From positions 26,367-90,366 of the forward strand of contig JADHVF010000001.1 of NCBI GenBank assembly GCA_016784145.1: a stretch of 64,000 bases of DNA. The letters are read 5' to 3'. This document shows, one piece after another, positions 38,927 through 51,155 of the stretch. Numbering within the stretch: position 1 is the first letter of the stretch; every line of letters starts with the position of its first letter. The notes under the pieces are model-generated. The model did not search any database and had not been told where the DNA came from. It was given only the letters and a program-made list of their open reading frames with translations. Source of the DNA: Patescibacteria group bacterium. GTDB taxonomy: Bacteria; Patescibacteriota; Patescibacteriia; UBA2591; UBA6264. The position numbers and the translations under genes were made by a program.

Positions 38927-40498
38927 TTAGAGGGATTTGATCATATAGGTGTTTTTGAGTCTATATCCTAGTTTGCGGTAATATTCTCTAGTGCCAATGC
39001 CGGCTATTATTGACATCTTTTTACAACCTCTTTGTTTAGCGATTTTAGTTGCTGCTAATATTAATTTTTTTCCTAATCCTAGATGCTGAGTTGCTTTATG
39101 CGGCTGTTTACTTGAATCAATTTCAATTAATTGTCCATATGTATGCAATTCTCTTATTAGGGCTGTTGAGCTGTTGGTTGGCAATCTTAATCTAATAAAA
39201 GCAGCTAATTTATCTTGTTTAGTGTCATTAAAAGATAACCATATTTCTTGTCCATCAGAGGCAGTATATTCTTTGTTTAATAATTTCAAGTTTTTAATTG
39301 TTATTTGTTTGTCTTTTATCTCTCTGCATCTAATGCATTTACATTTTAGTTTCATGTCTTTCATTTTTTCTTGAATTATCTCTCTTAAATTTGAAGTCTT
39401 GCTACCTGCTTCAATTTGCCAAGCAGGAATATCGCGAATTAATCGATTAATTCTAACATATCTAGGAGTGATTGATTTTATTTTAATAATTAAGTCAATT
39501 AATTGTTCGTCAGTATATGGTTTATAATTATTGTTTTTCCAAATATCAAACAATTTAGATCCTTTAGTAATTACACAAGGATATATTTTAAGCATGTCTG
39601 GCTGAAACACAGGATTAGTAAAAATTTGTTTAAACATGGCTAGATCTTTTTTAATTGAAGACCCTAATAATCCAGGCATCATATGATAACATATTTTAAA
39701 GCCGCTATTTTTTAATAATTTAGTTGCCTTAATTATTTCTTTTGTTTTATGTCCTCGATTATTTTTTTCTAAAATATCATCATAAACAGATTGAACCCCG
39801 ATTTCTACTCTTGTGCAACCAAGTTTTCTCATTCTCTTGATTTCTGTCTTGTTAATATAATCAGGCCTTGTTTCTAGTGTTAATCCAATAATACGATGTT
39901 TGGCTGTTTCATTTTTTTTCTGAGCAGATAGCAAAGTTTTACTTTTTGCTTGATTGGCTGCGTCAAAACATTTTTTGATAAACCAAATTTGATATTGTTT
40001 AGGCAAGTAACTCCAAGTACCCCCAATTACAATTAATTCAATTTTATCAACAGGGTGACCGGTTTGTTTTAATGATTTTATTCTCGTCACCACTTGTTTA
40101 TATGGATCAAAATCAAGTAATTTTGCTCTTTCAACAGCTGGTTCGCCTGATAGATAGCTTTTTGGAATACCAGCTTCAGTTGGGCAATAAATACAATCTC
40201 CAGGACATGGCCATTGTTTAGTTAGGACAGCCACGACAGCTACACCAGAAAGAGATCGGACAGGTCTTTTTTTTAATTGATTTTCAAAAAATGGAATTAT
40301 ATTTATTTTGTTTGTTGCTCGGGTTTGTTTGTATGCACTTAAAATATCAATGTTGCTAATCATGTTGATATTTAATTTTTTTGAAATTTTTCTTTTCCAT
40401 TTTAAAAAATCATCAAAATTATTAATTTTGCTTGATTTAATTTCCTGGGTTAATTTATAATTATTTATTTTATTTGCCATTGATTTTAATATTAGCAT
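38927..40498 (-). CDS. elp3: Elp3-family radical SAM/GNAT protein (tRNA wobble-uridine carboxymethylation enzyme homolog)
   Basis: The radical SAM motif is WPCPGDCIYCP (CX3CX2C). Conserved Elp3 blocks are SGVAVVAVLTK, ETRPDY, VEIGVQS, YVRINRLIRDIP and IRELHTYG. The C-terminal GNAT motif A is QHLGLGKKL, followed by GIGTREYYRKLGY. The protein aligns block-for-block by eye with yeast Elp3 as recalled. Confidence 0.85.
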   Translation of the reverse strand: MLILKSMANKINNYKLTQEIKSSKINNFDDFLKWKRKISKKLNINMISNIDILSAYKQTRATNKINIIPFFENQLKKRPVRSLSGVAVVAVLTKQWPCPGDCIYCPTEAGIPKSYLSGEPAVERAKLLDFDPYKQVVTRIKSLKQTGHPVDKIELIVIGGTWSYLPKQYQIWFIKKCFDAANQAKSKTLLSAQKKNETAKHRIIGLTLETRPDYINKTEIKRMRKLGCTRVEIGVQSVYDDILEKNNRGHKTKEIIKATKLLKNSGFKICYHMMPGLLGSSIKKDLAMFKQIFTNPVFQPDMLKIYPCVITKGSKLFDIWKNNNYKPYTDEQLIDLIIKIKSITPRYVRINRLIRDIPAWQIEAGSKTSNLREIIQEKMKDMKLKCKCIRCREIKDKQITIKNLKLLNKEYTASDGQEIWLSFNDTKQDKLAAFIRLRLPTNSSTALIRELHTYGQLIEIDSSKQPHKATQHLGLGKKLILAATKIAKQRGCKKMSIIAGIGTREYYRKLGYRLKNTYMIKSL

Positions 40499-40552: not shown

Positions 40553-41218
40553 ATGAAACAAATAAAAGTTAGGCAGATTTTAGATAAAAGTAAACAAGCC
40601 TGGGAAGAAATAGCTGACGAATTTTCCAAATCAAGGGAAAATCTTTGGCCTGAATTATCTCCCTTAACAAAGTATGTGAAAGATAATAATTCTGTACTTG
40701 ATTTAGGATGCGGGAATGGACGTGTTTATGATCTATTTAAACATAGAAATATAAAATATACTGGTATTGATAAATCAGCCAAATTGATTGCCAAGGCAAA
40801 ACAAAGGATTCAAGCATCAAATGCTAATTTTATTGTTGGAGATGCGTTAAACATGCCATTTAAACAATCAAAGTTTGATGTTATTTTTAGCATTGCTTTT
40901 TTGCATCATATTCCAACTAAAAAATTACAATTAAAAACTCTAAATGATTGTTATAATATTCTTAAGCCAGGAGGAATTATGATTATAAGTGTGTGGAATT
41001 TTTGGCAAATTAATTTAATTAAAAAATATAAAATTTGGCAAATTTTTCTGGGCCAAAAAAACATCCTTATTCCTTTTACTTTAAAATCTAAAAAAATAAT
41101 GCGTTATTATTATGTTTTTAGATTTAAAGAGTTTCAGACAAGAATAAAATCAGCTGGTTTTTTAATTTTTAATAAAAAGAAAAGTCATAATTTTACTATA
41201 TTTGCTAAAAAGAAATAA
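40553..41218 (+). CDS. Class I SAM-dependent methyltransferase, Trm9/ALKBH8-methyltransferase-like (start moved to ATG 40553; the ORF track uses a TTG at 40511)
   Basis: SAM motif I (VLDLGCGNGR) is present. The flanking blocks AWEEIADEFSKSRENLWPEL, AFLHHIPT and ISVWNF parallel the Trm9 blocks IAPHFSxTRYKPWP, AVVHHWST and IYCWA as recalled, but this is unverified. Confidence 0.55.
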   Translation: MKQIKVRQILDKSKQAWEEIADEFSKSRENLWPELSPLTKYVKDNNSVLDLGCGNGRVYDLFKHRNIKYTGIDKSAKLIAKAKQRIQASNANFIVGDALNMPFKQSKFDVIFSIAFLHHIPTKKLQLKTLNDCYNILKPGGIMIISVWNFWQINLIKKYKIWQIFLGQKNILIPFTLKSKKIMRYYYVFRFKEFQTRIKSAGFLIFNKKKSHNFTIFAKKK

Positions 41219-43637: not shown

Positions 43638-43714
43638 AGTATTATTATACCATTTTTTATAATTTTTTCAACATAAAGGGTTTAAAAATATAGAGAATTT
43701 GTTATAATTTATAG

Positions 43715-44338
43715 ATGCCAGAATCTTTTATCATAGCCCCTCTTTTATTAGGTCTTTCAACTGGAATATATTGTTTTGTTTATTGTATTCCTTTTATTGC
43801 TCCAGTAATGATTTCTGAGAAAAGAGGCAAACAACAAGACATTAAGACACTTACTCATTTTATTCTAGGTAGATTAATTGGCTATATTTTATTTGGGGCT
43901 GTGTTTGGTTATTTAGGGGAAAGTATTAATAATGATAATTTAAATATTATCTTGAATATTGCTCTTGTTTTAATGTCTTTGATTTTAATCTTACATGCTT
44001 TTGGTTTGTTAAGGTCAACTAAATCTTCGTTTTGTGCTAATATTAAAAAACATAATAAAAAATTCCCACTATTAATGGGTTTTTTTATGGGGATAAATGT
44101 TTGCCCGCCATTTTTAATGTCATTGGCTTACATTTTCACTCTTAATAGTGCTTTAAAAGGTATTATTTATTTTTTAATGTTTTTTGTTGGCACCACTCTT
44201 TATTTTATTCCTTTAGTGCTTTTAGGGTTGTTAAATAAAATGAAAGAGTTCCAACTTGTCGGCAAAATTTCAGGGCTAATAGTTGGTTGCTTGTTTTTGT
44301 TTTATGGAATATATAATATCATTTTACTAATAAATTAA
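43715..44338 (+). CDS. CcdA/DsbD-like membrane protein (putative transmembrane thiol-disulfide electron conduit)
   Basis: Six predicted TM segments. A Cys-Pro pair lies in TM1 (YCFVYCIPF) and another in TM4 (GINVCPPF), the pattern seen in CcdA/DsbD-family proteins. Family assignment is by motif only. Confidence 0.4.
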   Translation: MPESFIIAPLLLGLSTGIYCFVYCIPFIAPVMISEKRGKQQDIKTLTHFILGRLIGYILFGAVFGYLGESINNDNLNIILNIALVLMSLILILHAFGLLRSTKSSFCANIKKHNKKFPLLMGFFMGINVCPPFLMSLAYIFTLNSALKGIIYFLMFFVGTTLYFIPLVLLGLLNKMKEFQLVGKISGLIVGCLFLFYGIYNIILLIN

Positions 44339-44347
44339 TAAAAAAAT

Positions 44348-44662
44348 ATGGATAGAAACAAAATTAATAGAATTTTATTTAAAATATCAAATTATGCAGG
44401 ACCTTTGTTGGGAATTATTATGTTGATATATATTATATCGGGCTATGGCATAACCAAAGGGATTATGTCTCCCTTGTTAGCCAAATCCTTGCATAGCAGA
44501 TTGTTGCCAATTCCTTTATTCATGGTAATTGGTTTGCATGCTTTTATTAAAATGAATTTTAATTTAAGAAAAAGAGTTAGTAAAGATATAATTGCAGATA
44601 TTTGGACAATTATTTTATTTGGTCTATTTATGTTGGCTGGTCTTTATTTATACTTTTTATGA
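44348..44662 (+). CDS. Small hypothetical membrane protein (3 TM), translationally coupled to the downstream radical SAM gene
   Basis: Its stop TGA overlaps the ATG of the next gene (ATGA at 44659-44662). Confidence 0.35.
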   Translation: MDRNKINRILFKISNYAGPLLGIIMLIYIISGYGITKGIMSPLLAKSLHSRLLPIPLFMVIGLHAFIKMNFNLRKRVSKDIIADIWTIILFGLFMLAGLYLYFL

Positions 44663-45765
44663 TTAGGAAAATAGGAGCAATTTTATTTTTAATAATAATT
44701 ATCTTTTTAGTTGGATTTTTGATTTATGGTTCTGAAAAAAATAAAGACCAAATTGATTTTTATCCAGCCAAATATTATCAAACATTAGGGAATAAAATTG
44801 TTCAATGTAATTTATGTCCTAGAAAATGTATTTTATCGCCAGGAGAAATAGGGGTTTGTAAGGCCCGAAAAAATGTTGATGGAGAATTAAAAACAATGGT
44901 TTATAACAAGGTGGCAGCAGCCCATGTTGATCCCATAGAGAAAAAACCACTTTATCATTTTTTGCCAGGCACAACAGCTTATTCTATTTCAACAGCTGGT
45001 TGTAATTTACAATGCAAGTTTTGTCAGAATTGGCAAATTGCTCAAGTTTTTCCATGGGAAGCAACCTCAATGGAGATGTCTCCGCAAGAGGTTGTTGATA
45101 ATGCCTTGGCTAGTAATGCTAAGGCAATTGCTTATACTTATGGAGAGCCAACTATTTTTTATGAATACATGTATGATATTGCTAAATTGGCTCATAAAAA
45201 TGGGCTTAAAAATGTGGTGATTAGTGCTGGATATATAAATCCAGAGCCATTGCAAGACCTTTTGGAATATATTGATGCTTACAAAATTGATTTTAAGGGA
45301 TTTTCTCCTGATTTTTACAAAGAAATGACTTTAGGAGAATTAGAGCCAGTGTTAGAAACAATGAAAATTATAAAGCAATCAGGCACTTGGTTGGAAATTG
45401 TCAATTTAGTTATTCCAGGAGAAAACGATAATGATGAAAATTTGAAAAATTTAGCTTTATGGATAAAAGATAACTTAGGAGAAGATGTTCCGTTACATTT
45501 TCTTAGGTTCCATCCAGACTATAAATTGTTAAATGTTCCTCCAACTCCAATTAATACTCTAAAAAAAGCTAGACAAATAGCTTTAAACGCAGGACTAAAT
45601 TATGTTTATACGGGCAATATTTATGACCCGGATGGCAGTATTACGTATTGTCCTGACTCAGGGGATGTAGCCATTAAAAGGCAAGGTTTTTTTCTTTTAG
45701 ATAATAATTTAGATAAAAATGGCTATTGTTCGCCTGACTCGCAAGTGCCAGGAATTTGGCAATGA
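44659..45765 (+). CDS. AmmeMemoRadiSam-system radical SAM enzyme (PFL-activase-like) with an apparent N-terminal TM helix
   Basis: The N-terminal Cys cluster CNLCPRKCILSPGEIGVC precedes the canonical radical SAM motif GCNLQCKFCQN (CX3CX2C). The overall length fits the family. The predicted start MIRKIGAILFLIIIIFLVGFLIYG is a hydrophobic helix. The ORF-track start at 44602 lies inside the upstream gene. Confidence 0.75.
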   Translation: MIRKIGAILFLIIIIFLVGFLIYGSEKNKDQIDFYPAKYYQTLGNKIVQCNLCPRKCILSPGEIGVCKARKNVDGELKTMVYNKVAAAHVDPIEKKPLYHFLPGTTAYSISTAGCNLQCKFCQNWQIAQVFPWEATSMEMSPQEVVDNALASNAKAIAYTYGEPTIFYEYMYDIAKLAHKNGLKNVVISAGYINPEPLQDLLEYIDAYKIDFKGFSPDFYKEMTLGELEPVLETMKIIKQSGTWLEIVNLVIPGENDNDENLKNLALWIKDNLGEDVPLHFLRFHPDYKLLNVPPTPINTLKKARQIALNAGLNYVYTGNIYDPDGSITYCPDSGDVAIKRQGFFLLDNNLDKNGYCSPDSQVPGIWQ

Positions 45766-45774
45766 TTTTATTAT

Positions 45775-47304
45775 ATGAAAAAGAAATATTTAAAAATTAG
45801 TTTTTGGTTTTTGTTAATAATAGTAATTTGTTTGCTTTGGTTATCTTGGCAGGTCAAAAAAAATCAACAATTATATTCATTACTCCCTATTGAACAAGCA
45901 CAAGTAAAAATTATTAGAAGCCCGGCAGTGGCTGGAACTTTTTATCCTTCATCTCCATCTGTTTTGAAAAACACTATCAATCAATTTTTAGACAAAGTGC
46001 AAATAATAGAAACAGATAATCAAATAATGGGGTTAATATTGCCTCATGCGGGCTATCAATATTCGGGCCAGGTAGCTAGTTATGGAATTAAGCAATTAGC
46101 AGGGCAATCAATAGACACAATTATTTTAATTGGCAATAGTCATTATGATAGGTTTGACGGAATCTCTGTTTATGAACAAGGATATTATAAAACACCCTTG
46201 GGGGAAGTCAAGATAGATTCTGTTTTAGCGAGCAAGATTATCAATGCTAATAAGCGAATTTTTTTTAGAACTAAAGCGCATGAGCAAGAACATGGTTTGG
46301 AGGTTGAGTTACCTTTATTACAACAAGTATTAGATAATTTTAAGATTGTGCCGATTATGTTTGGAAATGGTAGCGATGATGATTATAAAATTTTAGCTGA
46401 AGCAATTGTTAAACACACGGCTAATAAAAATGTTTTATTAATTGCTAGTTCTGACTTATCTCATTATCCGTCCAGAAATCATGCGAGAATTGCTGACTTA
46501 AAAACAATTGATTCAATTTTAACTGGAGAGGTTGATCAATTTAAAAATACTATACTTAAATTAAAGCAAGAGGGGATTCCAAATGCCTCAACCTTTGCTT
46601 GTGGACAGGATGCTATAAAAACAGTGATGCAGGCATTGAAACAAATGAATGCAAATGAAATTAAATTATTTAATTATGCTAATTCAGGCGATGTTATAGA
46701 GACAGAGCAAAAAGTGGTTGGATATACTAGTATTGGTTTTTTTGGAGCCAGAAGAGGGGATTTATTGAATAAATTAGAAAAAGAAAAACTTTTACAGATT
46801 GCTAAACAAACAATAACATCGCATGTTTTAAATAAAAAAATTCCTGAATTCGAAATTAATTCAGGCAAATTAAAAGAAAATTTAGGAGCCTTTGTCACCA
46901 TAAGAAAACAGGGGAGACTAAGAGGTTGTATTGGTAGGTTTTCTCCAACAACAGTTCCATTACATCAAGTTGTATCTGAAATGGCTATATCTGCCTCTTC
47001 AAATGATAGTAGATTTCCGCCAGTTCAACCAAATGAGTTAGCAGAGCTTGATTACGAGGTTTCTGTTTTAAGTAATTTGATAAAAATTGATGATTGGCAA
47101 GAAATTGAATTAGGTAAGCATGGTGTGCAAATCAGGCAGGGCATGAGAAGTGGCGTGTTTTTGCCACAAGTTGCTACTGATAACAATTGGGACATAAATA
47201 GGTTTATGGGTGAGTTATGTTCTCAAAAAGCAGGGCTGGCATATGATTGCTGGAAAAATAATAATGTTGAAATTTATGTTTTTACGGCCCAGGTTTTCGA
47301 ATAG
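45775..47304 (+). CDS. Fused Memo-like (AmmeMemoRadiSam protein B) and AMMECR1 (protein A) protein with an N-terminal signal anchor
   Basis: The Memo/MEMO1 motifs are AGTFYPSSP, LPHAGYQYSG and IGNSHY. The AMMECR1 motifs are GAFVTIRKQGRLRGCIGRF and GVFLPQVA. The N-terminus MKKKYLKISFWFLLIIVICLLWL is a hydrophobic segment. 509 aa. Confidence 0.8.
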   Translation: MKKKYLKISFWFLLIIVICLLWLSWQVKKNQQLYSLLPIEQAQVKIIRSPAVAGTFYPSSPSVLKNTINQFLDKVQIIETDNQIMGLILPHAGYQYSGQVASYGIKQLAGQSIDTIILIGNSHYDRFDGISVYEQGYYKTPLGEVKIDSVLASKIINANKRIFFRTKAHEQEHGLEVELPLLQQVLDNFKIVPIMFGNGSDDDYKILAEAIVKHTANKNVLLIASSDLSHYPSRNHARIADLKTIDSILTGEVDQFKNTILKLKQEGIPNASTFACGQDAIKTVMQALKQMNANEIKLFNYANSGDVIETEQKVVGYTSIGFFGARRGDLLNKLEKEKLLQIAKQTITSHVLNKKIPEFEINSGKLKENLGAFVTIRKQGRLRGCIGRFSPTTVPLHQVVSEMAISASSNDSRFPPVQPNELAELDYEVSVLSNLIKIDDWQEIELGKHGVQIRQGMRSGVFLPQVATDNNWDINRFMGELCSQKAGLAYDCWKNNNVEIYVFTAQVFE

Positions 47305-49510
47305 ATAGAATTAAAATAAACCACAAATTTATTATTGATATAAATGCTAGGCTATTAATTATTCCGAAAATAGGAATTAAAATTAATGAAGGCAACAAAC
47401 AGCCTAACATTGAGCCAATTAAATCAGCGCTATATATGGTGCCTGTTTTATTATCAAGGTTTGTTTGAGATAATAGAAAAATATTATTTGAAATTGGAAA
47501 GATGGCTGCTCCTATAAAACCAGTCATTAGCAAGATTATTAAAATAATAATTTCAGATAGAACATGACTTATATTTATTAACAAAGGCAAAATTCCTATA
47601 AGGATAATTGGAAATATTATTAAAATTAAGTGCATTTTAATTAAATCATTAAAATCTTTTTTTGATTGACCATAAAATATGCCTAGGGCCATACCAATAA
47701 AAAATACTGATATTAATAGAGAAATTCGGAGATAAATATGGCCAATAATTGATTGATACGTAAAAATAGTTATTATTTCTAAGGCCATCAAACAAAATCC
47801 GCCTATGATTATTGAAATTATAGGTAATTTTTTTAATAATTGTTGTTTTGACTTTGATAAATATAAAGATATTGTTAGTAATAACATGGCAAAGATTTCC
47901 CAAAAATATGAGGATAAGGTTTTTAATAATTTTGAGAAATTTAAATAAAAATGATCTAACCAGAATAAGTTTTGATAAAAATAGGCAATTGGTTTGAACA
48001 TTTTATTTGTGGCTGCTTGTTTATTTTCATCAAACAATTCAATCATTTTGACTGAGCGAGGATTGGTCATGCGGTATTTAATATAATCTTTATTTATAAA
48101 TTTAGTGTTAATGTTTCTTTGGCTAATTCTACTTGATAAAATTTTAGAACTGATGCCAGTATAAGGGTTTTTGTGTCCTAAAAATAAATTTGATTCATCT
48201 GCTAAAACAGATACTCTTGGAAAAACTTGTTTTAAAGTTTTGTATAAAGATGCATTAAGATTAGCTAGATTGCCAGTCATAGAGCTTAATGAAGAAGACA
48301 TGTGAGTTGCTATTATGCCACTATTGGCTAGTTTTTTATGAGTTATTTGAATGAATTCTTGAGTATAAAATCGGTTAGTGTGAGCAGTCGAAGGATTAGG
48401 TATGTTTATGATAATAAAATCAAATTGTTCATTTGTTTTGTTTAAAAAATAAAAGGCATCTTTGTTAATAATTTTTACTTTATCATTTTTTAATGCTTGG
48501 CGAGCTTGTTTTGAAATATATTTTTTAAATATGTTTAATTTTTGTTTGTCTGGCTCTACGTAATAAACCTGGTCAGGATTATGCTTCAATGTTTCTTCAA
48601 GGGCTTGAGAAAGGTTATTGCCTATTAAAAGAATTTTTTTAGGAGATGAATGATGTAGCAATGATAAATGAATAAAACTTTCATAAAACAAGGCTTCCTT
48701 GTCTGAATAAATAAGCTTATTGTTTAAATAAAAATTATGTTGTGAGTCAATTTTTGTGACAGCAATGTTTCCATAATAAGAGTTGCTGGTGGCTAACAAT
48801 TCTTGATTTTTGAACCTAAGAGATTGTGTGGCTGTGTTTAGTTGTTTCAAATATGGAGAAAATGAAAGAAAAATTAGTATTATTATTAAAATGCTTGTAA
48901 AAATTTTTATTAAAAAATAGGGTGGTTTTTTATGAACAAGCAAAAGTATCATGCTTAGATTTATTACAAGTAGAATCAAAGCAACAAAGAATTCATTAAA
49001 TCTAATAAACCAAAAACTAAATAAAAAACCTCCAATTATAAAGCCGATTATTTCTAAAAAATAGGCTTTATTTATTTCTTTAATTTTATTTTGATTAAAT
49101 AATTTAGAAATAATTTTACTGGCTATTGTCCACCATAATCCTAATGTAATACATAAAGGAGCTGGAATTATAAAGGCAAATACAAAAGAATGAATTAAGT
49201 TTGGAATTTCTCCTGCCAGTCCTAGATATAATTTTACAATTCTAATTAAAAATATTTCCAGTAAAAATAACCACCCTATCCAAAAATGGATTTTGACAAG
49301 GGAATATAAGTCTTGTTTAGATTTGTTTAAATATTTTTTGAAAAAACCACTGCCAAAAGCAATCCATCCTAACCAAGCAGCTAAAATTATGCCAATAAAA
49401 AATTCATTGCCATAAAAAGTGGAAATCGCTTCCCTTATAATAATTGATTGAGTTATAATAGAACTAATCCCCAGTACAAAAATAGATGTTAAAGCATTTT
49501 TCTTCCTCAT
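47282..49510 (-). CDS. Polytopic membrane protein with a central spermidine-synthase-like (PABS/class I methyltransferase fold) domain
   Basis: About 14 TM segments flank a soluble domain. Within it, KKILLIGNNLSQALEETLKHNPDQVYYVEPD and FDFIIINIPNPSTAHTNRFYTQEF parallel the spermidine synthase GGGDGG...VEID and DVIIxDxxDP...LFTxEFY blocks. The glycine-rich motif is degenerate. Confidence 0.5.
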   Translation of the reverse strand: MRKKNALTSIFVLGISSIITQSIIIREAISTFYGNEFFIGIILAAWLGWIAFGSGFFKKYLNKSKQDLYSLVKIHFWIGWLFLLEIFLIRIVKLYLGLAGEIPNLIHSFVFAFIIPAPLCITLGLWWTIASKIISKLFNQNKIKEINKAYFLEIIGFIIGGFLFSFWFIRFNEFFVALILLVINLSMILLLVHKKPPYFLIKIFTSILIIILIFLSFSPYLKQLNTATQSLRFKNQELLATSNSYYGNIAVTKIDSQHNFYLNNKLIYSDKEALFYESFIHLSLLHHSSPKKILLIGNNLSQALEETLKHNPDQVYYVEPDKQKLNIFKKYISKQARQALKNDKVKIINKDAFYFLNKTNEQFDFIIINIPNPSTAHTNRFYTQEFIQITHKKLANSGIIATHMSSSLSSMTGNLANLNASLYKTLKQVFPRVSVLADESNLFLGHKNPYTGISSKILSSRISQRNINTKFINKDYIKYRMTNPRSVKMIELFDENKQAATNKMFKPIAYFYQNLFWLDHFYLNFSKLLKTLSSYFWEIFAMLLLTISLYLSKSKQQLLKKLPIISIIIGGFCLMALEIITIFTYQSIIGHIYLRISLLISVFFIGMALGIFYGQSKKDFNDLIKMHLILIIFPIILIGILPLLINISHVLSEIIILIILLMTGFIGAAIFPISNNIFLLSQTNLDNKTGTIYSADLIGSMLGCLLPSLILIPIFGIINSLAFISIINLWFILILSIRKPGP

Positions 49511-49564: not shown

Positions 49565-50035
49565 ATGAAAATCCTACTTGTTTTTTATTCTAGAACTAAA
49601 ACAACAGCCAAGCTTGCTAAAGTAATGGCAGGCAAAATTGATTGTGATTCAGAGGAGATTATTGACACATTTGATAGACAAGGAGCAAGAGGTTATTTGA
49701 TTTCAGGCAAACAAACAATTCAGAAAAAATTAACATTACTTGAACCAATTAAAAATAAACCAGATTCATATGATTTAGTGATAATTGGCACTCCTGTTTG
49801 GGTTTTTACAATGTCAGTTCCAATCAGAACTTATATAAATAATTATTATAAGCAGTTTAAGCAAGTAGCTTTTTTTTGCACGCAAGGAAGCAAGGGGCAT
49901 GAGAAAACATTTAAACACATGGAAGAGCTATGTAAGCAAAAGCCGATAGCTGTGATTGATTTTACAACTAAGCAGATTATAAATCACGAGTATTCTATTA
50001 AATTAAAAAAATTTATTCAAGCAATAAAAACTTAG
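49565..50035 (+). CDS. Flavodoxin-like fold protein
   Basis: MKILLVFYSRTKTTAKLAKVMA resembles the flavodoxin N-terminal MKIxIVYxSxTGNTE loop. 156 aa. Confidence 0.4.
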   Translation: MKILLVFYSRTKTTAKLAKVMAGKIDCDSEEIIDTFDRQGARGYLISGKQTIQKKLTLLEPIKNKPDSYDLVIIGTPVWVFTMSVPIRTYINNYYKQFKQVAFFCTQGSKGHEKTFKHMEELCKQKPIAVIDFTTKQIINHEYSIKLKKFIQAIKT

Positions 50036-50097: not shown

Positions 50098-50628
50098 TTA
50101 TTGATTGACTTGTCTATTACGGAACATTCTTTGATGATTTTCATATTCTGGCATCACCTGAAATTTATACCTATTCATCATGCCGCCATTATATCTTTGA
50201 TAAAATTGTCTCATTGGGCGATGTTTAATCCAGAAAACATCAAGACCAGAATAATTTATTAACCAACCAGCTAATAAAATAGCCAAAATAAAACTAGTTG
50301 ATATCAAAACAAAATTTTTCTTATATGAAAAATCAAATTTTTTTAAAAGCCAGACACTAATTCCAATACCGATAATAGCTAAGCCAAGTGCCCACCAAGG
50401 GAAACTTGCTAATAGTTGTTGGTAATGAAATTCTTTCATTCGGCCATGTGTCCGCCAGGAAAATGTTACTAAACTTATTGAAAATATTGTTAAAATAGCA
50501 ACTCCAGTTAAACCAGTAATCATGGTTAGTGAATTTAAAACAAATTGCCATTTTGGTTTTATTTTAATTTTCTTTTTTTTAATTAAAGACATTACATTTT
50601 GTTGTATTTTGTCTATTTTTTTTGACAT
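50098..50628 (-). CDS. Putative membrane anti-sigma factor (by position and topology only)
   Basis: It overlaps the 3' end of the ECF sigma gene by 16 nt. It has a short cytoplasmic N-terminus and 3-4 TM helices. Confidence 0.35.
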   Translation of the reverse strand: MSKKIDKIQQNVMSLIKKKKIKIKPKWQFVLNSLTMITGLTGVAILTIFSISLVTFSWRTHGRMKEFHYQQLLASFPWWALGLAIIGIGISVWLLKKFDFSYKKNFVLISTSFILAILLAGWLINYSGLDVFWIKHRPMRQFYQRYNGGMMNRYKFQVMPEYENHQRMFRNRQVNQ

Positions 50629-51155
50629 ATTTTTTTCATTAAAATTTTAGCTCGCTTAATTCTTGTCCCGACTGTATTAACTGGCACTCTCAAAATATCA
50701 CTAATTTCTGAATATGATTTTTCTTCTATAAAAAATAAAGTTAATGGTTCGGAATATAAAAGAGGGATTTGAGATAAGCAATTGTGTATCATTGCTTGTA
50801 TTTCTTTTTTAGTAAATTCCATTTCAATATCTTCTTCGCTTTTAAAATCCATCTTGTCTGTTATTGGTAGTTCGTATTTATTTTTTTTAATAGCATTAAT
50901 TGCTTCGTTATGAACAATTCTATATATCCATGAAGAAAATTTTTTCTTTATATTAAAATTATTTAAGTTAATAAATGCTTTAATGAAAGAATTTTGTACA
51001 ATATCAGCAGCATCATCATTGTCATTGATTAGGTAATTAGAATATCTAATAAGTTTATTTTGATATCTGTTTATTATCTGACTATAAGCTTCTTCGTCTT
51101 TTGTACGGACATATTCTATTATTTGTTCGTCTGTCATTTTTTTTAATTCTTTCAT
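50613..51155 (-). CDS. ECF-type RNA polymerase sigma factor (sigma-70 family group IV)
   Basis: Region 2 is DIVQNSFIKAFINLNNF...WIYRIVHNEAINAIKK. The region 4 HTH is SYSEISDILRVPVNTVGTRIKRAK. 180 aa. Confidence 0.75.
   Translation of the reverse strand: MKELKKMTDEQIIEYVRTKDEEAYSQIINRYQNKLIRYSNYLINDNDDAADIVQNSFIKAFINLNNFNIKKKFSSWIYRIVHNEAINAIKKNKYELPITDKMDFKSEEDIEMEFTKKEIQAMIHNCLSQIPLLYSEPLTLFFIEEKSYSEISDILRVPVNTVGTRIKRAKILMKKICQKK

Follow-up and report, generated by a model that had tools for sequence, protein, structure and literature searches.

The 64,000-nucleotide stretch analyzed here (the window), from a Patescibacteria group bacterium (contig JADHVF010000001.1), encodes what is probably the Patescibacteria version of an outward-facing (extracytoplasmic) variant of the AmmeMemoRadiSam system, equipped with dedicated membrane partners. 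We refer to its genes as A to E. On the forward strand lie A (43715-44338), encoding a six-helix membrane protein of 207 amino acids (aa) from the DsbD_2/CcdA-like family; B (44348-44662), a small protein of 104 aa with three transmembrane (TM) helices; C (44659-45765), the TM-anchored radical S-adenosylmethionine (SAM) enzyme of the system; and D (45775-47304), a Memo-AMMECR1 fusion of 509 aa. On the reverse strand lies E (47282-49510), encoding a protein of 742 aa with 14 TM helices (7+7) and a Spermine_synth domain. Computation across related genomes showed that C and D carry export or anchor signals throughout the clade, and that genes of the five families occur linked to one another in several lineages, among them Patescibacteria and Omnitrophota. 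The data for D, C, and E all place the catalytic domains, by prediction, outside the cytoplasmic membrane.

The AmmeMemoRadiSam system was defined by comparative genomics (TIGR04335, TIGR04336, and TIGR04337), and the window proteins pass the cutoffs of all three models. C scored 393.7 bits against TIGR04337 (cutoff 220). D matched the Memo model TIGR04336 over residues 48-320 (252.7 bits, cutoff 26) and the AMMECR1 model TIGR04335 over residues 338-508 (167.4 bits, cutoff 99), with Pfam scores of 206.4 bits for Memo and 178.7 bits for AMMECR1. An earlier note on this DNA had recognized all three hallmarks, with Memo and AMMECR1 fused in one protein of 509 aa, and the model scores bear this out. 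It had also described an extra N-terminal Cys cluster in the radical SAM partner, which is indeed present as the four-Cys motif CNLCPRKCILSPGEIGVC (44806-44859), in addition to the core CX3CX2C motif CNLQCKFC (residues 115-122; 45001-45024). In D, an N-terminal signal-anchor helix (residues 8-25; 45796-45849) precedes the Memo domain (45916-46734) and the AMMECR1 domain (46786-47298, with RLRGCIG at 46915-46935). Conservation extends to the residues of the Memo metal site, to RGCIG in AMMECR1, and to the two Cys motifs of the radical SAM enzyme.

The genes are tightly packed, with 9 nucleotides (nt) between A and B, 9 nt between C and D, and a spacing of -4 nt between B and C, where the TGA stop of B overlaps the ATG of C (ATGA) at 44659. 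E converges on D, and their 3' ends overlap by 23 nt. The open reading frame (ORF) listed for C begins at TTG 44602; we rejected this start and took the ATG at 44659, because homologs begin at its equivalent (MIRKIGAILF in the window) and the stretch from the TTG covers the 3' end of B, read in a different frame. No reassignment of start codons removes the hydrophobic helix of C (residues 5-23; 44671-44727) or that of D.

To place these genes in context, 170 related loci were assembled: 80 from species-representative genomes (D profile), 80 from metagenomes (C as the query), and 10 from exact-protein look-ups. An eleventh exact-protein look-up (P0248) returned a gene listing without DNA and stands outside the 170 loci. 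ORFs of the loci were compared with the window proteins and with family hidden Markov models. Many contigs were short, so that all counts of partner genes are lower bounds. Most of the loci compared came from uncultured metagenome-assembled genomes, and at least one came from a cultured isolate, Draconibacterium sp. IB214405 (L056), whose D has no signal and no adjacent C or E.

The order A-B-C-D with a convergent E was found in Patescibacteria and close relatives (L081, L082, L089, and L091-L107), the order A-C-D with a convergent E in L088 and L090, and one or the other of these on the P0248 contig. L086 had A-B-C-D; the gene convergent on its D had no Pfam match, and similarity to E was limited to a short fragment downstream. 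Omnitrophota showed A-C-D with a convergent E (L001 and L002), A-B-C-D with a convergent E (L022), or C-D-A (L006, L008, L014, L027, L035, and L047). In Bacteroidales and others, all three genes share a strand, with E placed between D and C (L010, L011, L015, L030, L037, L040, L042, L055, and L061), and in many metagenome loci E directly follows a C of the twin-arginine translocation (Tat) type, even with no D nearby. C adjoins D in 44 of the first 80 loci. The reverse look-up gave the same picture: all three A homologs that were hand-picked for long contigs not yet matched to D fall in the module cluster, where a B homolog of only 37% identity also sits. ORF clustering of the first 87 loci revealed no conserved family beyond A to E, and no conserved gene for a substrate, such as a precursor peptide.

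The distribution of the partner genes followed the targeting class of the radical SAM enzyme. A was present in 35 of 40 loci whose enzyme is of the TM or general secretory (Sec) type or is fused to B, versus 0 of 57 with a Tat-type enzyme and 0 of 28 with a signal-less one (0/85 together; Fisher p=5e-26, treating loci that share ancestry as independent). B occurred in 22 of the same 40 loci and in none of the other groups. E accompanied 62 of the 97 exported enzymes and 4 of the 28 signal-less ones (Fisher p=3e-6, on the same assumption), and one of those four (L009) is an artifact: an apparent frameshift at L009:6400-6830 splits the TM-anchor part of the enzyme (MLKKIIFNIVIIIVLIMIGSAII...EAKYY) from the remainder, so that a naive ORF call makes it look signal-less. 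E is the most widely conserved partner in the module. The survey of relatives that the earlier note had proposed thus confirms the linkage of the CcdA-like gene and adds the conservation of B; the A-D cluster that the note delimited is real, and the module extends beyond it to E.

Sidedness is indicated, first, by D. A hydrophobic helix lies ahead of the Memo domain in 105 of the 120 best D homologs (48-62% identity, nearly all about 500-530 aa). Orthologs outside Patescibacteria carry Sec signal peptides of the signal peptidase I (SPI) type, e.g., ...LTGPAMA↓DQIRKPAVAG and ...LTASA↓QVRK (arrows mark cleavage sites), or lipoprotein signals (...LLLCSC, ...LPAQGC, and ...VVLAC); SPI cleavage sites or lipoboxes were found in most D orthologs. 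In the TM-type D proteins, net charge averaged +1.9 on the N-terminal flank of the helix and +0.1 on the C-terminal one (100 sequences), a bias that points to an N-in, C-out orientation.

The helix of C is conserved as well, in that its homologs are anchored by a TM helix, bear a signal peptide, or are fused to B, so that the hydrophobic N-termini reported for both enzymes are no peculiarity of the window. Among the N-termini of 129 C homologs, 46 had an RR twin-arginine motif (RR-x-F-L-K type) and 11 a KR variant (mostly Bacteroidales), 30 had a Sec signal or TM anchor, 10 were fused to B, 28 had no signal, and 4 were unclear. The Tat model TIGR01409 (cutoff 16.7 bits) was passed by 6 of 18 N-termini tested, at 17.5-22.3 bits, with several just under the cutoff, and the h-regions of the Tat-type homologs are only weakly hydrophobic. 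The C of the window has no twin-arginine motif; its MIRK followed by a very hydrophobic 19-residue helix is that of an anchor of the signal recognition particle/Sec type. Omnitrophota enzymes have Sec signal peptides with short h-regions and AxA-type sites (e.g., MKKSLLLLILLLSVLFPAIGA↓DQ), and hence cannot be stably anchored by them.

A further indication comes from ten relatives in which B and C form one protein of 442-443 aa (L091-L095, L097-L099, L102, and L103; e.g., L091:2686-4017), in the order two-His 2-TM module, K/R-rich loop, anchor helix, and radical SAM domain. Their N-terminus carries a charge of +2 to +3, the loop before the last helix (RNLLRRIPIK) mostly +4 (one +3) with no acidic residue, and the flank after the last helix +1 to -2, being 0 or negative in 9 of the 10. 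With the K/R-rich N-terminus and loop on one side, the radical SAM domain is predicted to lie on the opposite one. The MIRK of the window aligns with the end of this loop; the B of the window is separate from C and has an additional third helix compared with the fusions. The C-terminal ribbon of the enzyme also varies with its targeting: CxxC...CxxC is reduced to C-x-x-S...C-x-x-(G/D), with two Cys, in the TM-anchored, A-linked group, which includes the window (45649-45729) and L081, L082, L086, L088, L091, L100, L105, L001, and L022, while Tat-type and cytoplasmic homologs keep all four ribbon Cys. The two-Cys ribbon would fit an extracytoplasmic setting.

For E, per-sequence hydropathy gave inconsistent numbers of TM helices, and a family-averaged hydropathy map with a count of loop charges on the alignment was used instead. 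In the map, a soluble domain of about 315 residues separates two sets of seven TM helices. Loops on the N-terminal side held on average 21.1 K/R, versus 5.3 on the side of the soluble domain (21 sequences), a bias that places the SAM-fold domain outside. The earlier note had the cluster acting at the membrane; its membrane association stands, with the refinement that the domains most probably face outward, as judged from the Sec and lipoprotein signals of D, the Tat signals of the radical SAM enzymes, and the topology of the B-C fusions.

Taken together, these patterns suggest how such a system might work. D would be a type II membrane protein whose two catalytic domains lie outside, and C would be inserted N-in/C-out, so that its Fe-S/SAM domain lies outside beside the outward domain of E. 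C, D, and E may then act jointly on a substrate in the outer leaflet of the membrane or in the cell envelope, candidates being surface proteins and molecules of the lipid or isoprenoid type. Tat lineages would export the radical SAM enzyme folded, with its clusters already loaded. Sec/TM lineages, in Patescibacteria (that of the window included) and Omnitrophota, would export it unfolded, which would be why A and B are needed there, and E would be needed whenever the enzyme works outside. B, probably a dimer binding haem or another metal, would pass electrons across the membrane to the radical SAM cluster. A would pass thiol reducing equivalents outward and so keep the cluster-ligand and active-site Cys reduced, or alternatively would deliver metal. 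That all of this amounts to a complete radical SAM machine outside, with SAM obtained via or from E and electrons via B and/or A, which modifies a lipid or envelope component together with D, is possible, and we would not call it likely. If true, it would entail the export of SAM and of low-potential electrons, and possibly the upkeep of Fe-S clusters outside the cytoplasm, and to our knowledge no instance of any of these has been described.

The case for electron transfer concerns mainly B, for which Pfam and NCBIfam scans returned no family match and PDB sequence and profile searches nothing useful. A word-indexed protein search found only B itself; an exhaustive representative search recovered its relatives. 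Two His are invariant: H49 (44492-44494), predicted to lie on a short outer-face helix, and H64 (44537-44539) in TM2, the latter in 24 sequences. A K/R-rich loop connects TM2 and TM3. A structure model of B, a three-TM helical bundle, resembles the SdhD haem-b anchor; three-helix bundles are a common fold, so this match is suggestive only. With SdhC/SdhD and FrdC/FrdD, B shares the three-TM bundle, and its H64 is a candidate counterpart of their haem ligand in TM2. In contrast to these anchors, it has a second invariant His on the outer-face helix, no detectable sequence similarity to them, and fusions to Cyt-b5-like domains or to the radical SAM enzyme. None of the loci examined held SdhA/SdhB partners, so B is not a complex II subunit, and the comparison is limited to a similar way of working.

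Nine B relatives of 196-251 aa carry B at the N-terminus. All seven of these long relatives that were scanned (P0254, P0269, P0270, P0272, P0273, P0278, and P0283; L171:6001-6672) continue through a Ser/Thr/Pro/Asn-rich linker into a C-terminal Cyt-b5-like (haem/steroid-binding) domain (29-44 bits, cutoff 23.7), so that B is a membrane module recurrently accompanying redox domains. For haem binding by B, these fusions are indirect support. P0254 stands alone near an ArsP permease and an ATP-binding cassette transporter, with no radical SAM gene nearby. The earlier suggestion that reducing power reaches the system through the membrane thus gains support mostly from B, namely its two invariant His, the SdhD-like model, and the Cyt-b5-like fusions. 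Patescibacteria usually lack haem synthesis, which weakens the haem reading. Weighing these points, we put B as an electron wire at nearly even chances.

A scored 86.9 bits against DsbD_2 (PF13386; E=2e-24). In the window it matched this family only and not DsbD (PF02683), for which a few close A homologs have a precomputed match too; PDB sequence and profile searches with A gave nothing useful. The Cys-Pro motifs that the earlier note had pointed out in TM1 and TM4 proved invariant: C24-x-P26 (within C20-x3-C24-x-P26; 43772-43792) and C130-P-P (44102-44110) in 35 and 12 sequences, with C20 as an additional invariant Cys. CcdA/DsbD proteins (e.g., Thermus CcdA, PDB 5VKV) likewise have one Cys near Pro in TM1 and in TM4. 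A differs from them in belonging to the DsbD_2 branch, in its extra TM1 Cys (CxxxC), in the lack of a thioredoxin-like periplasmic partner in its loci, and in its linkage, which is to a radical SAM enzyme where theirs is to cytochrome c maturation. The conserved families of the first 87 loci, being A to E only, include no thioredoxin-fold acceptor of the ResA/CcmG/TlpA type, though such a partner might be encoded elsewhere in the genome. A thiol conduit is a tentative assignment for A, and in our view somewhat less likely than not.

In E, the two TM bundles flank the spermidine-synthase-fold domain (residues ~220-534; 47909-48853). E scored 79.5 bits against Spermine_synth (PF01564) and matched solved spermidine and thermospermine synthases (E=8e-16 and weaker). 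It fell below all SpeE equivalog cutoffs (PRK03612, 156.5 versus 472; PRK00811, 101.4 versus 260; TIGR00417, 87.4 versus 249.55) and also below that of NF037959 (37.5 versus 40). Its glycine-rich loop (IGNNLSQ in the window; G-x-G-x-(N/S/T)-G in the family) lacks the GGGDG Asp that selects decarboxylated SAM over SAM, and the catalytic D-x-x-D-P is replaced by the family-conserved N-x-P-x-P...NRFYTxEFF (NIPNP in the window), which in the form N-x-P-x-P...N-R-x-Y-T-x-x-F-F holds in at least 80% of 21 sequences. E retains motif I and the acidic residue for ribose binding. By these motifs, E is not a normal aminopropyltransferase. With the membrane spermidine-synthase-like proteins (PRK03612) and the major facilitator superfamily fusions (NF037959), it shares a Spermine_synth Rossmann domain preceded by several N-terminal TM helices, the PRK03612 alignment covering residues 10-409. 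Unlike them, E has a second 7-TM bundle after a domain that is predicted to lie outside, replacements in both diagnostic motifs, and a gene tied to those of exported radical SAM enzymes.

The TM halves of E matched no Pfam family, and their helices hold conserved polar residues (including Q21, R26, N35-E36, E153, Q586, and D696), which points to a transporter or an enzyme more than to a passive anchor. These residues, together with the outward SAM-fold domain, would make E the best candidate for bringing SAM outside or using it there. Best candidate is a relative term, and that E actually supplies SAM seems to us somewhat unlikely. None of A, B, and E passes a curated NCBIfam model.

Several observations weigh against an outward-facing system, and they are best considered with the alternatives. 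The assignments of sidedness are predictions throughout, based on signal-peptide motifs, the positive-inside rule, and simple predictors of our own, and since the loci are not phylogenetically independent, the Fisher p-values are too optimistic and overstate the evidence. We know of no mechanism for assembling a 4Fe-4S cluster after Sec export or for supplying SAM outside the cell. SAM, Fe-S assembly, and low-potential donors are known in the cytoplasm only, and this favors an arrangement in which the helices of C and D run N-out/C-in and merely tether ordinary enzymes to the cytoplasmic face, where they would use cytoplasmic SAM and flavodoxin or ferredoxin, with A, B, and E as partners or substrate providers. 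Such tethering would agree with the flavodoxin-like gene (window) or ferredoxin gene (L088 and L090) beside E and with K/R-rich segments after the helix of some TM-type enzymes, two of which are more positive after the helix than before it (L001, RRERSFR; L082, KKETVRR). The charge bias of C in the window is itself only modest (MIRK before the helix, net 0 after). However, tethering does not account for cleavable SPI and lipoprotein signals on D orthologs, for twin-arginine signals on 57 radical SAM homologs, or for Omnitrophota signals, which combine short h-regions with AxA-type cleavage sites and could not anchor stably. The radical SAM domain of the B-C fusions and the K/R-rich loops are predicted on opposite sides, the side of the soluble domain of E is poor in K/R, and the flavodoxin and ferredoxin neighbors are not conserved. 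We therefore consider tethering improbable, though it is the alternative we would take most seriously.

A different objection is that the two enzymes need not share a compartment. Prevotella and relatives (L038, L048, L054, L057, L062, L066, and L067) pair a D that has a signal or lipoprotein peptide with an adjacent radical SAM enzyme of ~287-321 aa that has neither signal nor C-terminal ribbon, and no E or A lies nearby; these loci look like a split-compartment arrangement. In the same manner, C might resemble PflA or anSME and modify D or another exported protein inside the cell, only the product working outside, and the helices and partners would merely couple modification to export. The closest characterized relatives of C are indeed protein-modifying (protein-radical) activases, namely PflA (65.9 bits), the YjjW activase, and NrdG. 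Radical SAM maturases of exported proteins such as anSME/AtsB and QhpD stay in the cytoplasm. The HXS defense system, the nearest published case, offers a precedent, as its cytoplasmic radical SAM enzyme matures a Tat-exported effector (PMC13128918). What is shared with anSME/AtsB, QhpD, and HXS is radical SAM chemistry serving an extracytoplasmic end product; in the present family, the radical SAM enzyme itself bears the export signal. Maturation inside the cell leaves unexplained both these Tat or Sec signals on most of the homologous enzymes and the tracking of exported radical SAM genes by E with its outward SAM-fold domain, and the absence of a precursor peptide or conserved substrate gene from the first 87 clustered loci speaks against it as well. 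It strikes us as a decidedly improbable account.

Least probable, and in our view very unlikely, is that the neighborhood reflects general envelope housekeeping and not one machine, A being a metal or anion permease and E an unrelated polyamine enzyme. Homologs of A are named 'sulfite exporter TauE/SafE family protein' in source databases, and members of PF13386 are also annotated as UreH-like metal (nickel) permeases, both of which count against a thiol conduit; E, for its part, matches spermidine synthase structures (E=1e-16 to 1e-9). Yet A occurs only with radical SAM genes of the Sec/TM type, and the three hand-picked A homologs lie in the module cluster. E lacks the catalytic Asp and the Asp selecting decarboxylated SAM, scores under every SpeE equivalog cutoff, and in Bacteroidales operons has D on one side and C on the other. 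Metal delivery by A would, moreover, be compatible with an outward-facing AmmeMemoRadiSam system too.

Burroughs et al. reportedly proposed, in 2019, a link of AmmeMemoRadiSam to the modification of nucleotide bases and isoprenoids. In the literature searched, we found no report of the function of AmmeMemoRadiSam, none of an exported or Tat-targeted radical SAM enzyme, and nothing relevant on DsbD_2 or membrane spermidine synthases. The window has the same three hallmark families as AmmeMemoRadiSam, in adjacent genes; it differs in that Memo and AMMECR1 are fused behind a signal anchor, in that the radical SAM enzyme is TM-anchored (and Tat- or Sec-targeted in relatives), and in that A, B, and E are conserved membrane partners. 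For the 57 Tat-type homologs, folded and cluster-loaded crossing is predicted, as in Tat-exported Fe-S proteins (hydrogenase small subunits and the NrfC/DmsB type). What appears to be new here are the export and anchor signals, the three membrane partners, and the pattern of Tat-type enzymes versus Sec-type enzymes with A and B.

Turning to the surroundings of the module, a promoter-like site (TTTAAA-16-TATAAT with TG; 43681-43708, forward strand) ends 7 nt ahead of the start of A and is a possible operon promoter that would leave only a very short leader. Such sites are no more frequent in the region than chance predicts (43 found versus 40 expected), which makes this a weak indication, and in the scan for promoters and terminators the counts were no higher than chance. 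The GC content of the window is ~30%.

The earlier note had seen a spermidine-synthase-like and a flavodoxin-like gene downstream and called flavodoxin the usual reductant of radical SAM enzymes; both genes are there, and the flavodoxin link did not hold. F (49565-50035, forward strand) scored 39.5 bits against Flavodoxin_4, has no signal peptide, and has no homolog in any of the 170 loci, and we rejected it as a conserved reductant and treat it as a neighbor only. At the equivalent position, a 71-aa ferredoxin is encoded in just two closely related loci (L088:12764-12979 and L090:12563-12778), and IscS and NifU in one locus only (L081:15293-16817). These may represent a lineage-specific cytoplasmic supply of electrons or Fe-S clusters, or coincidence. 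Just past F on the reverse strand (50098-51155) lies the gene for a sigma factor of the extracytoplasmic function type (Sigma70_r2/r4_2), and the gene that comes after it, with an overlap, encodes a 176-aa membrane protein, which had no family match and is probably an anti-sigma factor.

Some Patescibacteria have a TM-anchored Memo-AMMECR1 fusion with no adjacent radical SAM gene (L083:5828-6751 and L084:7075-8004). There, a ThiI/tRNA_Me_trans-like (PP-loop) gene precedes D, either directly or with one gene between them, and an MJ0043_C-domain gene is nearby. Upstream of the module, the window encodes a 523-aa Elp3-like protein (Radical_SAM, Radical_SAM_C, and GNAT; 38927-40498, reverse strand) and, divergently, a class I methyltransferase (40553-41218, forward strand). 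A matching pair, a 547-aa Radical_SAM/Radical_SAM_C protein and a Methyltransf_11 protein, lies near the D homolog of L084. The two could be a bacterial Elp3/Trm9-like pair for the modification of tRNA wobble uridines in Patescibacteria.

Their need for SAM, Fe-S assembly, and electrons of very low potential is why radical SAM enzymes are regarded as confined to the cytoplasm. A widespread clade whose members bear Tat, Sec, or anchor signals challenges this view, and the signals predict unrecognized routes by which SAM and electrons would cross the membrane. Both Memo and AMMECR1 are ancient and have links to human disease, and we know of no biochemical function for either. The variant described here would narrow that search to chemistry at the membrane or envelope, with three new partners and with compact D-E-C operons of the Bacteroidales type. 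In Patescibacteria, the module may help these reduced episymbionts remodel their own surface.

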